From a bacterium (lineage in GTDB: Bacteria; Electryoneota; Electryoneia; Electryoneales; Electryoneaceae): a stretch of DNA of 64,000 bases. The position numbers were made by a program, and so were the translations under genes. Of this stretch, positions 36,949 through 55,424 are shown piece after piece. Below the pieces are notes generated by a model, which did no database searches, had not been told where the DNA came from, and worked only from the letters and a program-made list of their open reading frames with translations. The stretch's first letter is position 1. Each line of letters starts with the position of its first letter. The DNA lies in assembly GCA_963669175.1 (NCBI GenBank), contig OY769902.1, forward strand, positions 3,488,001 through 3,552,000. Direction: 5' to 3'.

Positions 36949-37240
36949 GGAAAATGGGGACTGTTACTCTTTTTCACTTTCATGAATGTCAACTTTTGAC
37001 GATTATGCTTGATTTATACTCGCGATCATTTATTTCTAACAAATCTACTTCGAAAAAGGTAACTGTACCAACATTTTCCGTCCAGAATCATCCCCGACAG
37101 CCGGCAAAACATCCGATACAATTCCGATTAGGGCTATTCGAAGATATTCGGCAAAAAATCCGGTACAGTTACCTTTTCGGATAGTTTTGACAATGTATTT
37201 TATTACGGATAAGTTTGAAAAGGTAACAGTCCCATTTTTC
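36949..37240. repeat. Nested inverted repeats (four copies of an approximately 20-nt repeat)
   Basis: AAAATGGGGACTGTTAC (36951) pairs with GTAACAGTCCCATTTT (37223); AAAAGGTAACTGTACC (37054) pairs with GGTACAGTTACCTTTT (37162). Confidence 0.8.
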
Positions 37241-37407
37241 GCCTTTCTTACCGCACCAGATTGATTTAGAGAGCATGTCGAATTGTGTATAGTCGTTCCC
37301 GAAAGTCTTTACTGTTTCAGGTTGGCAGCAGTAGCTTTCTGGCACTGAACATCCTTCTTGGGTAGGGTCGATTCTCCCCAATTGCACTCTTTCGAAAATT
37401 ATTATTA

Positions 37408-37614
37408 TTAGCAGGCTTTAGCCTGCTCCTCTTAGCCCCCGGCTTTAGCCGGGGGCTAAGAGGCCAACAAGGGTTTGAGCGCCCTTCAGGGTGCTTTCCT
37501 GATCCGTATTGATTCGATGAAAAAAAAGCACGCTAAAGCGCGCTCATAGCTTTTGTTATTTCCATCCACCCGGCTAAAGCCGGGTGCTAAGAGAAGCCTG
37601 CTGAAGCAGGCTAA
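37408..37614. repeat. REPIN/BIME-like symmetric cluster of six palindromes
   Basis: Perfect 17-bp-arm palindrome at 37428-37463; hairpins with TTTA/TTCA loops on the left are mirrored by TAAA/TGAA loops on the right; TTAG/CTAA ends. Confidence 0.85.
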
Positions 37615-37730
37615 TCGCTTTCGAATCAGCAATAACTTTCGAGTTCCTATGTTAAACGACAGGCGCATCAAGTCGTGTTGGAACTGCTATCTTAGCAGTA
37701 TTCCATTTTTCCAACACAAGGAGAAGCGCC

Positions 37731-38792
37731 ATGTCGAAGAACCAAGTTATTGCAGCGGACCGTTCATTGTCTATAGGTCTGGATGTTGATTCGCAGACTT
37801 CTTTCGCCGTTGTGCTCGACACCCAGACTGGTGAAGTGCTCTTTGAGAATCGGATCAAGCATGACTCAGCCGCCTGGGAACGCTTCTTTGCCCGTTTTCC
37901 CAACTGCCGCATGTGGGCGTGTTATGAAGCGGGCCTCACCGGCTTTGGCCTCTGTCGTTACCTGATCGGCCAAGGTGTTGACTGCCAGATCGCGCCGCCC
38001 AGCCAAGTTCCCAAAGGGGCGCAAGCGAAGCAGCAGAAGACCGATCATCTGGATGCCCTTACCTTGGCCCACATGTTCTGGACACCACCTCGTACCTGGG
38101 TACATGTCCCCACAGAACAGGAAGAGGCGGATCGTCAGTTGTCTCGCACCCGTGACCAGGTGATGAATGATCGCGTTCGGGTCAAAAACCGAATCAAGAG
38201 TCTGCTATTGTTTCACGGTTTACAGTCACCGTTTCCGCCGCAACGCTATTGGACAAAGGAATACCGGCGCTGGTTGCGAACGTGTGATTGTCTGGCCGCG
38301 ACACGGATAGCCATTGATGTTGCTCTCGATGAGCTGGAGGCCATTGAACAGCAACTCAAGGTGATCACCAAAGCGATCAAGGCGATGAATGCGTCCGCAA
38401 CGTATCGGGACCGTACCCAGCGCCTGCGCCAGGTGAAGGGAGTGGGCGAGTTGACCGTGAACGCCTTCGTGACCGAGATGTATCGTCCCGAACGCTTCGC
38501 ATCCGGTAAGCAAGTCGGCGCACATCTTGGCTTGACGCCGTGTGAATGGTCAAGCGCCAACACACGCCATATGGGACACATTACCCACTGGGGACCGTCC
38601 CATCTACGAAAACTATTGGTCGAAGCTGCGTGGCGTTGGGTGCAAAAAGATCCGTATGCAAAGAAGAAATACGATGCGATCCATGCCGGGAAAACACGGA
38701 AAGTGGCGATCGTCGCCATGGCACGAAAACTAGCCGTGATACTGTGGGCCATGCTGGTCAAAGAACAAGACTACAATCCTGCCTGCGTATAA
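37731..38792 (+). CDS. IS110 family transposase/recombinase
   Basis: DEDD RuvC-like motifs IGLDV, CYEAG, KTD.LDA; C-terminal GLTP.EWSS (catalytic Ser), LVEAAW, AIVAMARKL. Confidence 0.96.
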   Translation: MSKNQVIAADRSLSIGLDVDSQTSFAVVLDTQTGEVLFENRIKHDSAAWERFFARFPNCRMWACYEAGLTGFGLCRYLIGQGVDCQIAPPSQVPKGAQAKQQKTDHLDALTLAHMFWTPPRTWVHVPTEQEEADRQLSRTRDQVMNDRVRVKNRIKSLLLFHGLQSPFPPQRYWTKEYRRWLRTCDCLAATRIAIDVALDELEAIEQQLKVITKAIKAMNASATYRDRTQRLRQVKGVGELTVNAFVTEMYRPERFASGKQVGAHLGLTPCEWSSANTRHMGHITHWGPSHLRKLLVEAAWRWVQKDPYAKKKYDAIHAGKTRKVAIVAMARKLAVILWAMLVKEQDYNPACV

Positions 38793-38996
38793 CCCCAGCA
38801 CTGCTGGCAGGTAGGTAAAGCATAGATTGTGATTGAATCGTCCGATGCCATTGGGAACACGCGACCCTGGTAGTTATTCTGTTGCTTGACAACGATTCGA
38901 GTTTAGGGCGCCGCTGTTCCGTGCGAACAAAAAACCTGTGCCACGAGCACGAATAGCAGAACGGCACATGGGACGATACAAAGGCTCTTTACACCC
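38793..38996 (+). ncRNA. Putative bridge RNA/seekRNA of the IS110 element
   Basis: Two stem-loops (GAATCGT/ACGATTC; GCTGTTCCGTGC/GCACGAATAGC); TAGTTATTC at 38871-79 is the exact reverse complement of the right flank 39015-23. Confidence 0.6.
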
Positions 38997-39026
38997 TTGA
39001 CTGTTTACATAGCGGAATAACTATAT

Positions 39027-40490
39027 CTACAGGATATACCGCGACAGATCGTCATCCTCGACCAGGTCGGATAGTGTCTCCTGTACCATCGCCTTCGTGA
39101 CTTCAATCTTCTTGATCCGCTTATTTGGAATCTTGAACAGCCATTCATCCAGCAGTCTTGTCATTACGGTATGCAACCTGCGGGCGCCGATGTTCTCGGT
39201 ACGATCATTAACCGTGGCAGCGAAACGTGCGATTTCACGAATTGCGGCCTTATCGAAAGTCAGCTCAACATTTTCCGCAGAGATCAGCGCTGTATACTGC
39301 TTCACCAGTGAATTGCGAGGTTGAGTCAGGATCTTTACAAAATCCTTTTCGTCCAATGGGTCCAGTTCAACCCGAATGGGGAAACGTCCCTGCAATTCCG
39401 GGATCAGATCAGAAGGCCGCGCCACATGAAATGCTCCTGCCGCAACGAACAGGACATGATCAGAATTCACCGGACCGTATTTTGTGGTTACCCGTGTGCC
39501 TTCAACGACAGGAAGAATATCACGCTGAACCCCTTCCCGGCTCACATCAGGCCCGTTACCCGGCTCAACCGCTGCGATCTTATCTATTTCATCCAGAAAG
39601 ACGATACCGACCTGTTCTGCCCTGTCAATCGCTTCTGCAATAATGGCGTCCATATCCAGCAAGCGGTCAATCTCTTCACCGAGGAGCAGGCTACGGGCTT
39701 CGTCAATCGTGACTTTACGCTTCTTCCGTTTTTGCGGCATCATTCCGCCGAACAGCTCCTGCAGGTTGATTCCCATCTCTTCAATCCCGATAGGACCAAT
39801 CACCTGCATCATACCACCGGTTTTCTCCGGAACACGCAATTCGACAGTAAATTTTTCCAGCTTGCCGCTACGCAGACGTTCACGCATTTTTTCACGTGAA
39901 CGTGCATATCGTTCAGACGCTATCGCAGCCTTTTCTGCTTCTATGCCCTCATCAATCTCATCATCTTCTTCGTCATCATCATCATCACCGTTCTCTTCAA
40001 CCTGCTGCGCGATTCCACTGAGCAGGTCATTCAGGTTTTTCGGGCTGGAAGATTTTGATGATGAAGGTGGCGGCAGCAAGAGATCAAGCAGACGCTCCTC
40101 AACCTTCAATTCAGCAATTTCGCTGACTTCTTCGGTTCGTTCCGAACGCACCATCGCAACCGCAGCGTCAACCAGATCACGAATAATGCCTTCAACATCC
40201 TTTCCGACATAGCCGACTTCGGTAAACTTGCTGGCTTCAACCTTGACAAAAGGCGCTCCGGCCAGTTTCGCCAGGCGACGGGCAATTTCAGTCTTGCCAA
40301 CGCCAGTCGGCCCCATCATGAGGATGTTGTTGGGCAGGATTTCATCGCGAATCGGATCTTCTACCTGTTGACGGCGCCAACGATTCCGTAGAGCAATCGC
40401 AACCGCACGTTTCGCTTCATCCTGACCAATGATGTATTCATCCAGTTCTTTTACGATCTGGCGAGGTGTGTACTCAAAAAGGGATTTCAC
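39027..40490 (-). CDS. hslU: ATP-dependent protease ATPase subunit HslU
   Basis: GPTGVGKTE, KFTEVGYVG, FLDEIDK, GVQRD, ENIGARRL, DLSRYIL. Confidence 0.98.
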   Translation of the reverse strand: MKSLFEYTPRQIVKELDEYIIGQDEAKRAVAIALRNRWRRQQVEDPIRDEILPNNILMMGPTGVGKTEIARRLAKLAGAPFVKVEASKFTEVGYVGKDVEGIIRDLVDAAVAMVRSERTEEVSEIAELKVEERLLDLLLPPPSSSKSSSPKNLNDLLSGIAQQVEENGDDDDDEEDDEIDEGIEAEKAAIASERYARSREKMRERLRSGKLEKFTVELRVPEKTGGMMQVIGPIGIEEMGINLQELFGGMMPQKRKKRKVTIDEARSLLLGEEIDRLLDMDAIIAEAIDRAEQVGIVFLDEIDKIAAVEPGNGPDVSREGVQRDILPVVEGTRVTTKYGPVNSDHVLFVAAGAFHVARPSDLIPELQGRFPIRVELDPLDEKDFVKILTQPRNSLVKQYTALISAENVELTFDKAAIREIARFAATVNDRTENIGARRLHTVMTRLLDEWLFKIPNKRIKKIEVTKAMVQETLSDLVEDDDLSRYIL

Positions 40491-54244: not shown

Positions 54245-54260
54245 TTCTATTTGCAGATCA

Positions 54261-54320
54261 ATAAGATTGTTTCCTACACATAGCATTTTTATATAAGATT
54301 GTTTCCTACACATAGCATTT
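54261..54320. repeat. 28-bp direct tandem duplication
   Basis: ATAAGATTGTTTCCTACACATAGCATTT at 54261 and 54293. Confidence 0.9.
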
Positions 54321-54372
54321 CGAAAAAATTATAGCTGTGTTCCTGTTTATTCTATCATCGTAATATTGCGGA

Positions 54373-54503
54373 GAAAAGGGGACGGGATCCTTTTCCGCGC
54401 GTTGACACGGAACACTTTTGCTGATCCTTTGGAAAAGGAAACTGTCCCCTTTTCCGTGTAATACCTGCCACCTCTCTAGAAAAAGAGTACAACTGCCTTT
54501 TCC
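54373..54503. repeat. Copies of the AAAAGG-N-GTCCCCTTTT repeat family
   Basis: GAAAAGGGGACGGGATCCTTTTCC, GGAAAAGGAAACTGTCCCCTTTTCC, GAAAAAGAGTACAACTGCCTTTTCC. Confidence 0.7.
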
Positions 54504-54554
54504 GATCCAAGTTTACAGTGGAAGGCTATCTCCCAAGGAAAGGCGGCAGTCCTC

Positions 54555-55424
54555 TTACTCCATCTCCTCCGCCGCGCTGCCCCATCCGAGCTTACGACGC
54601 AGAACCTGGAAGAAATTATGATTATCAAAGTTCACCAGGCAGGCCGCGAAATCAGCCCGCTTCACTTCCAGGGTTTCACCGCTGAACATGGTTCCGGCCA
54701 AACGACCATCCACATTGATAATCAATTCCGGTGACCCGGTGATGGCATGAATCCCGATTTTTTTCTTATCACTGATAAGAAGCGGCCGATTGGTAAAACT
54801 GTGCGGATTCAGCGGAACATACAGGATTCCGGCAAGCATCGGCTCGATAATCGGACCGCCTGCTGACAGGTTGTACGCGGTTGAACCGGTTGGTGTGGAA
54901 ATGATCAGGCCATCTGCGCGAAGACGATTCAGGAAGTCCCCATCTACACTCGCTTCCAGTTCGATCATCCGCGAGTAGCCGCCCTTGTTCACCACAACAT
55001 CGTTCAACGCATACCAGGTTCCCAGGTCCGGCCTGTCTGACACCTTAGCCTCAAGAACCATACGTTGCTCAATGGTAAATTCACCTTTCAGCAGGTCTTC
55101 AGTACGCTGTGTCAGATCATCCGCGCCAACAAGGGTTAGATATCCCAATCCGCCGACATTCACTCCGACAACAGGAATTTCACGTCCCTGCAGGATCCGT
55201 ACAGAGTTGAGCAGTGTTCCATCGCCGCCGAAACTGAGCAGAATTTCAGCTTTCTTCCCCACTTCTGATGGCGGGAAAAGCTTATATTCTCCGGAATCGA
55301 GGACTTCACGAAATTCACTGGACAGCAAAAACTCGATCTCTTTGTCGCGAAGCCAGCTTATATACTCCGGCAGCACAGACCGCAGTATTTCCTTGGTCGG
55401 ATTACCAACAAGTCCAAGAATCAT
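54555..55424 (-). CDS. nadK: NAD+ kinase
   Basis: GGDGT, ALND, DGLIISTPTGSTAY.LSAGGP. Confidence 0.96.
   Translation of the reverse strand: MILGLVGNPTKEILRSVLPEYISWLRDKEIEFLLSSEFREVLDSGEYKLFPPSEVGKKAEILLSFGGDGTLLNSVRILQGREIPVVGVNVGGLGYLTLVGADDLTQRTEDLLKGEFTIEQRMVLEAKVSDRPDLGTWYALNDVVVNKGGYSRMIELEASVDGDFLNRLRADGLIISTPTGSTAYNLSAGGPIIEPMLAGILYVPLNPHSFTNRPLLISDKKKIGIHAITGSPELIINVDGRLAGTMFSGETLEVKRADFAACLVNFDNHNFFQVLRRKLGWGSAAEEME

Follow-up and report, generated by a model that had tools for sequence, protein, structure and literature searches.

How does an insertion sequence choose the sites at which it inserts, and can that choice be read from its own non-coding end? The question is raised by a locus in the genome of a bacterium of the family Electryoneaceae (phylum Electryoneota; GenBank assembly GCA_963669175.1, contig OY769902.1). 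The stretch of DNA analysed, called the window here, is 64,000 nt long (positions 3,488,001 to 3,552,000 of the forward strand), and all coordinates below are those of the window. Its segment 37642-39013 is very probably an intact member of the IS1111 group of the IS110 family that carries its own target-choosing RNA, the RNA being predicted from the sequence. The type of system is already known: seekRNAs and bridge RNAs were published in 2024. In IS1111 seekRNAs the match to the top strand of the target lies 5′ of the match to the bottom strand, the two overlapping in the target, and in members of the group other than the present one the target has been reprogrammed through the RNA (Siddiquee et al., 2024; PMC11187229). 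Durrant et al. (2024; PMC11208160) predicted that 93% of IS1111 elements encode a bridge RNA in their right end, with loops for target, donor and core. A preliminary description of the locus had proposed an IS1111-type RNA-guided recombinase with a guide to its right flank downstream of the open reading frame (ORF), and covariation between guide and flank among relatives bears this proposal out.

Copies, ends and target of the element

The genome, a single 5.45-Mb contig, contains 12 full copies of the element, each 1372 bp long and 99-100% identical, with departures from the 12-copy consensus at 1-9 positions per copy. The sequence common to the copies runs from ..GAGTTCCTATG to ..TTTACATAGC. 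The orientation of insertion is uniform, all 12 copies lying between (T/C)(C/A)G and RGAAY..CTAT, and comparison of the 12 copies with uninterrupted sites shows that nothing of the target but the shared core is duplicated. In uninterrupted repeats the sequence is TCG-AG-AACAGCTATA and in occupied ones TCG-AG-TTCC...CATAGC-AG-AACAGCTATA; in the main repeat family the occupied sites are ...AAAATCG-AG-TTCCTATG...CATAGC-AG-AACAGCTATA. Because AG is the sole sequence common to both junctions and the uninterrupted site, and the core is counted once, at the left, the element is delimited as A37642-C39013 on the plus strand (1372 bp). The left core dinucleotide AG (37642-37643, plus strand) is present in 12 of 12 copies. 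The start given in the preliminary description, 37640, is thus moved to 37642, and C39013, which had been assigned to the core and target, becomes the last base of the element.

Four sequencing runs were found, all as contigs. One of them, the public run X1, seemingly from the same organism, serves as an independent check of copy number and right boundary: a collapsed repeat contig spans 37641-39013 at a depth of 287, the unique flank having a depth of about 25. An uninterrupted form of the window's insertion site was not present in the contigs of the DNA runs. It was also sought in a genome of the same genus (G001), where hslU is 73% identical and the downstream sequence is unrelated and lacks the repeat.

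The bases that follow the right end are target DNA, with a core copy GG at 39014-39015 and the right target AATAACTA at 39016-39023 (plus strand). Positions 39014-39023 vary among the copies while the element stays constant, and they are also found in uninterrupted repeats; GAAY..CTATA is assigned to the target, not to the element, because it occurs in uninterrupted repeat copies. That the element excludes its right flank had been proposed before, and the copies, the uninterrupted repeats and the X1 contig agree that 39016-39023 is target. Right flanks are related in all 12 copies, as had also been expected, and read CRGAAYARCTAT in 11 of them and CGGAATTTCTAT in the remaining one. The preferred target is TTCG-RG-AATAACTA (sites TTCG-RG-AAYARCTA). 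The empty site predicted earlier, ..TTTCGGAATAACTA.., has its counterpart in the uninterrupted sites, which are one base longer and read ...TTTCG GG AATAACTA....

Non-coding sequence makes up 221 nt on the 3′ side of the gene (38793-39013), close to the 220 nt first estimated, against 89 nt on the 5′ side (37642-37730). The ends carry a pair of sub-terminal inverted repeats, CTATGT(T)AAAC on the left (CTATGTTAAAC, 37647-37657, plus strand) and GTTTACATAG on the right (39003-39012), the left one having one extra base; both are kept in relatives. In the IS1111 group such repeats are 7-17 bp long and are flanked by short terminal extensions. Outside these repeats extend AGTTC (5 nt) on the left and C (1 nt) on the right, compared with a right-end extension of 3 nt in ISEc11. 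The left-end motif AGTT[C/T]CTAT[G/A]TT is kept in relatives whose sequence reaches the left end. On the right, a −35-like TTGACT (38997-39002) directly precedes the inverted repeat (the two together occupying 38997-39012, plus strand), and TTGAC[AT] followed by ..ATAG[CT] is found in 26 of 26 rows of relatives. A −10-like TATGTT lies at 37648-37653, inside the left inverted repeat. When C39013 is joined on paper to A37642, TTGACT comes to stand 17 nt ahead of TATGTT, and both boxes are kept in relatives. A search of the integrated copy for a sigma-70-like promoter found none.

The 5′ untranslated part of the element contains a hairpin at 37683-37699, ACTGCTATCTTAGCAGT then ATTCCATTTT, and a sequence akin to it (..CTGCTATATTA..) is kept in relatives.

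Target guides and their covariation with the flanks

Two segments of the 3′ non-coding region correspond to the target. The top-strand target guide TAGTTATTCT (38871-38880, plus strand) is complementary to the core AG plus AATAACTA, and its reverse complement, AGAATAACTA, is the exact core and right flank of two copies. The preliminary description had paired TAGTTATTCTG (38871-38881) with CGGAATAACTA (39013-39023). These are complementary at 10 of 11 positions with U:G as the odd pair, as it stated; the pairing is retained for 38871-38880, and the eleventh pair, G38881:C39013, is given up, C39013 being the last base of the element and G occupying that position in the uninterrupted target. The guide has between 7 and 10 Watson-Crick matches out of 10 with the right flank of every one of the 12 copies (10 in two copies, 9 in three, 8 in six and 7 in one). 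This agreement exceeds what chance would give. Six distinct right flanks occur among the copies, and the non-coding region is complementary to them in runs of up to 10 nt; a run of that length arises in 3 of 2000 shuffles of the region (mononucleotide, not dinucleotide, shuffles), and 47 other windows of 221 nt taken from the element yield runs of 7 nt at most.

The bottom-strand target guide ATTCGAG (38895-38901, plus strand) is identical to the left flank TTCG plus the core AG. At the left junction, 10 of 12 copies have TCGAG ahead of the element body, and four have TTCGAG.

Both guides change together with the flanks among relatives. The longest exact match between guide and flank was scored per element and summed, and the sum was compared with 20,000 permutations of the flank labels. 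For 18 relatives, the own-flank sum is 121 for the top-strand guide (permutation mean 70.7 ± 5.7) and 87 for the bottom-strand guide (69.0 ± 3.4), and in neither case is the observed sum attained in any of the 20,000 permutations. A further 13 relatives, more distant and found via the covariance model described below, give a sum of 92 for the top-strand guide and right flank (48.5 ± 5.6; 0 of 20,000). Runs of at least 7 occur in 8 of the 13 pairings of a guide with its own flank and in 4 of the 156 cross pairings. The rows of the relatives are not fully independent, because related elements share guides. The covariation itself is a direct observation, as are the copy number, the ends and the target.

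The non-coding regions of relatives with 44-56% protein identity align well with that of the window. At 38871-38881 the relatives have a variable segment ending in CT(G), followed by a hairpin and then, at 38895-38904, by a second variable stretch with AG at its end and T-N-T after it. Two further segments, GCTGTTCC (38913-38920, complementary to GGAACAGC) and GGGAAC (38853-38858), were considered as extra guides and rejected, because they are paired with each other as the target-arm stem.

Fold of the RNA

The predicted bridge RNA, or long seekRNA, is 157 nt long as bounded by its closing stem (38829-38985, plus strand; stem 38829-38849 / 38963-38985). Within it, a target-binding arm (38854-38920, plus strand) is modelled with a stem of 38854-38868 and 38905-38920, in which A38864 is bulged. 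The arm encloses both target guides and an inner hairpin (38880-38884 / 38890-38894, plus strand); a second hairpin would be formed by 38938-38941 and 38947-38950 (plus strand). The modelled fold, which is supported by covariation, puts both target guides in an internal loop.

The covariation of the fold was observed in two ways. In cross-pairing tests, the duplexes formed by an element's own arms are more stable than those formed between elements, at −18.7 vs −12.2 kcal/mol for the target arm (two mis-anchored rows, L052 and L054, being included) and −18.0 vs −10.8 kcal/mol for the closing stem (15 of the 18 elements, those with enough sequence); 0 of 20,000 permutations reach the own-arm value in either test. 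The second approach used a covariance model, R1, built from the window sequence and the fold, with which 100 sources were searched. R1 matches 53 other loci, all of them downstream of a transposase gene and in the same orientation, and 33 rows, the window included, have an E-value of 0.01 or better. In the resulting alignment 90.5% of cells are paired, compared with 59.0 ± 0.9% in shuffles, none of 500 of which reaches the observed share, and with 30-44% after the partners have been slid, and two-sided changes occur in 39 of 40 pairs; these counts lean towards structure because the alignment is fitted to the R1 model. A covariance model of the non-coding end across homologues had been envisaged in the preliminary description, and in the 13 distant relatives found with R1 the top-strand guide covaries with the right flank. 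The genome of the window has 12 matches to R1, all inside the 12 copies of the element. A search of 37000-39600 against Rfam 15 returned nothing for the non-coding region, and there is no Rfam family for the RNA.

Donor side of the RNA

Downstream of the target arm, the donor guide ATAGCAG (38953-38959, plus strand) is identical to the right end ATAGC plus the core. CGAATAGCAG is nearly invariant among relatives. In 35 of 45 distinct rows an element's own donor 7-mer is repeated exactly at the right end preceded by TTGAC, and the donor variants match their own right ends: ATAGCTG (L051, L057), ATAGTAG (L055) and ATAACAG (L079, L097).

On the opposite strand of the donor loop, a candidate second donor guide, AAC(T/C) (38933-38936, plus strand), is complementary to the left end at the core AG and the TT that follows it. 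Some relatives, not all, have GAACT or GAAACT opposite AGTTC or AGTTTC; a consistent second donor guide was sought across relatives and none was established. Nine of the 12 copies have T at position 38936 and the other three, the window copy among them, have C; at every other position of the non-coding region the copies are identical. In the candidate guide, 38936 would stand opposite the first base of the core, and its T/C alternation recurs in relatives as GAACTTG or GAACCTG.

The transposase and its relatives

The transposase (recombinase) gene is an intact ORF of 353 amino acids (37731-38792, plus strand) with matches to PF01548 (DEDD_Tnp_IS110, E 5e-18), PF02371 (Transposase_20, E 8e-20) and the NCBIfam model NF033542, ‘IS110 family RNA-guided transposase’ (247.8 bits, cut-off 140). 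The DEDD domain at the N-terminus is of the RuvC-like type, and the PF02371 domain at the C-terminus carries the conserved serine. In an alignment of 40 relatives, residues D18, E66, D105, D108, S274 and S275 are invariant. From what is known of the family we take D18, E66, D105, D108 and S275 to be the catalytic residues. The length of the ORF, the Pfam matches and the invariant residues agree with the intact DEDD and serine recombinase proposed at the outset.

The nearest protein in the collection is 85% identical and metagenomic, the next two are 64% and 60% identical, and the top plasmid-borne IS110-family match has 34% identity. A locus scan with the single protein yielded only three relatives, and among 60 other genomes searched as relatives two give matches with E-values no higher than 1e-40, each with 48% identity. 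The only solved structures matched by sequence are IS621 (8wt6) and ISCro4 (9t56), in the C-terminal domain only (E 3e-9); for the N-terminal domain phmmer gave no match to these structures at E 0.001. In run X4, a wetland metatranscriptome, two 151-nt contigs that are 95-99% alike to the transposase ORF cover 37911-38281. These contigs differ from the ORF and therefore derive from a relative of the element, so a close relative is present in an environmental sample, where it may also be transcribed.

Target sites and host repeats

The first of two repeat families that host the element accounts for 7 of the 12 copies; 81 genome copies match its anchor with at most one substitution, and its uninterrupted consensus ends in ...GGAATAAAATCGAGAACAGctaTA. 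A copy of this family lies in the window at 54330-54575 (minus strand). It is about 245 nt long, contains four hairpins GGAAAAGG...CCTTTTCC and ends in ...AATAAAATCGAGAACAGCTATA. This dispersed repeat is a candidate for a family of small RNAs or of elements like miniature inverted-repeat transposable elements, and it has no match in Rfam. Directly after it, at 54255-54325 (minus strand), is a tandem direct repeat of about 33 nt, AAATGCTATGTGTAGGAAACAATCTTAT...

The second family resembles repetitive extragenic palindromic (REP) sequences and hosts three copies at its tails, the window copy included. In the window, the REP-like array occupies 37389-37641 (plus strand) and its tail, ...AATAACTTTCG, is the left target flank. 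The array consists of short palindromes, the loops of which are of the GCTNNAGC type (for example AGCAGGCTTTAGCCTGCT and CCCGGCTTTAGCCGGG), and of units of the CGAATCAGCAATAAC type that come after them. There are 16 further genome copies of its last 43 bases, and the 16 fetched loci comprise 7 uninterrupted tails TCGGGAA[C/T] and 6 more that are one base off; uninterrupted REP-like tails read TTTCG-GG-AAC..CTATA. The GCTGAAGCAGGCT unit of the array has 78 genome copies. Hits of the array to Rfam 15 are weak and sub-threshold, for example psRNA14 at 36.3 bits vs a gathering score of 60. The two repeat families are unrelated and share the tail TCGRGAAC..CTATA.

Two copies of the element, L007 and L012, lie outside both families and keep the flank motif. 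The genome has 7 sites matching TCGAGAA[CT]A[AG]CTA and no unoccupied full-guide site TCG[AG]GAATAACTA. As no fully matching unoccupied site is left, the best target sites in the genome may be saturated.

Alternative explanations

In the anatomy of the preliminary description the guide lay inside a stem closed by GAATCGT (38835-38841) and ACGATTC (38892-38898), TCCG (38841-38844) was the left guide, and the target was TYCGGAATAACTA with C39013 in the core. The two 7-mers are indeed complementary, and TCCG does resemble TTCG, but the 7-mers are not a conserved pairing. The region of the 5′ 7-mer is paired in relatives with a segment at the distal 3′ end (38837-38843 with 38971-38977), 38890-38894 forms the conserved inner hairpin with 38880-38884, and 38895-38898 belongs to the left guide, so that the stem conflicts with three supported helices as well as with the bottom-strand guide. 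TCCG sits in the closing stem, whereas ATTCGAG at 38895-38901 covaries with the left flank, and C39013 is constant in the 12 copies, with G at that position in uninterrupted sites. We therefore regard this arrangement as very unlikely.

It is conceivable in principle that the protein recognises the repeat tails, by their DNA sequence or as hairpins, and that the complementarity of the RNA is incidental; insertion at repeat tails (10 of 12 copies, in two families) and the tolerance of 1-3 guide mismatches would both fit. Copies L007 and L012, however, have the flank motif outside either family, and in the 31 relatives, which have different targets, the guide positions change along with the flank. 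Reprogramming through the RNA has moreover been demonstrated experimentally in other IS1111 members (PMC11187229), and recognition by the protein alone is extremely unlikely. The complementarity would be internal to the element if the right flank CRGAAYARCTAT were its true end, and BLAST matches between copies do extend to query positions 1425-1430, which are 39024-39029 of the window. Yet the 12 bases of the right flank vary at 4 positions among copies, against only 1-9 per copy in the whole 1372-bp body, uninterrupted repeats have these bases after TCG as well, and the collapsed assembly contig stops at 39013; an element end to the right of this point is extremely unlikely.

Several observations weigh against the reading of the locus as an IS1111-group element with its own target-choosing RNA. 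Most insertions (9 of 12) are at imperfect matches to the guide, with 1-3 positions that are not Watson-Crick pairs, and an A:C mismatch at right-target position 3 is present in 7 of 12 copies; the target is looser than the guide. With 5-6 nt, the bottom-strand guide is short and would not reach significance by itself, and the candidate second donor guide has only 3-4 nt and is mutated in the window copy. The residue after S275 is Ala (codons 38553-38558), where the consensus of the 40-sequence alignment has Gly. The sole RNA library covers parts of the ORF of a relative (37911-38281 only) and none of the non-coding region, and no circle junction was seen in the contigs of the DNA runs. The non-coding region had been called structured, which energy alone does not show: the minimum free energy of the whole region is no better than that of shuffles (z −0.45). 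RNAalifold, applied to a plain MAFFT alignment of 19 RNAs, predicts zero pairs, a result that we attribute to the misalignment of stems of variable length and after which the cross-pairing tests and the covariance model were used instead; the pair counts of the latter carry the bias towards structure noted above. The modelled structure is thus backed by covariation among relatives and not by fold energy.

Proposed mechanism and implications

By analogy with the family, transcription, circle formation, RNA binding and chemistry would proceed as follows. An RNA of about 155 nt would be encoded downstream of the recombinase gene. One of its arms would present the two target guides in an internal loop, and a second loop would carry ATAGCAG, the copy of right end plus core, and probably also AACU facing the left end. 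The element would be excised as a circle, the junction of which would build the promoter (TTGACT, 17 nt, TATGTT), and the complex of RNA and protein would recombine the circle with TTCG-RG-AAYARCTA sites at the tails of the two repeat families.

Four of the 12 copies have GG as the right-hand core, and all 12 have AG as the left-hand one, which fits insertion into tails with a GG core, the donor core being kept at the left. Tentatively, and with considerable doubt, the 12 copies could be seen as a natural record of how an IS1111-type system handles core mismatches. If this were so, sites with a GG core would be tolerated, plausibly via a U38880:G wobble, and the inherited product would always have the donor core at the left and the target core at the right. 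Such a pattern would constrain the side of the core on which the surviving strand is exchanged, and would bear on the choice between single-strand transfer and full Holliday-junction resolution.

The locus adds a cleanly delimited and apparently active IS1111-type recombinase from a lineage far from those studied. Its ends and core, the two target guides, a donor guide and the natural mismatch profile of 12 insertions are now defined, which makes it a candidate orthologue for programmable recombination and a source of data for comparing IS1111 bridge RNAs. How the system is understood does not change, and the NCBI family model already says ‘RNA-guided transposase’.

Comparison with known systems

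The element resembles ISEc11, ISPa11 and ISKpn4 as described by Siddiquee et al. (2024; PMC11187229) in having a DEDD transposase with a C-terminal serine motif (330-350 amino acids in those elements), sub-terminal inverted repeats and a long non-coding region 3′ of the gene. The order of the guides and their overlap in the target are those reported for IS1111 seekRNAs, and the predicted RNA of 157 nt compares with a long RNA form of about 150-170 nt in IS1111 elements (PMC11187229). Insertion at a specific site without duplication is shared with these elements, the site being a REP sequence in ISPa11; a promoter formed at the circle junction is described for IS1111 elements, and the one suggested here from the sequence would be its equivalent (PMC11187229). 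The present element differs from all three in its target and in the Ala, instead of Gly, that follows the serine, and it differs from ISEc11 in its left extension, which is 7 nt there and 5 nt here (PMC11187229).

With IS621 and ISCro4 (PMC11208160; 8wt6, 9t56) the element has in common the two-loop logic and a C-terminal domain that is detectably homologous (E 3e-9). The programmable right donor of IS621 comprises only 2 bp beyond the core, and the candidate guide found here would be similarly short (PMC11208160). Unlike in these two elements as they are described, the RNA is encoded 3′ and not 5′ of the gene, the order of guides within the loop is reversed, the sub-terminal repeats are long, and the core is AG instead of CT. 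ISPpu9 of Pseudomonas putida, as reported (PMC12288879), is likewise an IS110-family element with several copies in REP sequences and a small RNA gene downstream; its genome is reported to have extra stand-alone copies of the RNA gene, whereas all 12 matches to the RNA model in the present genome lie inside copies of the element.

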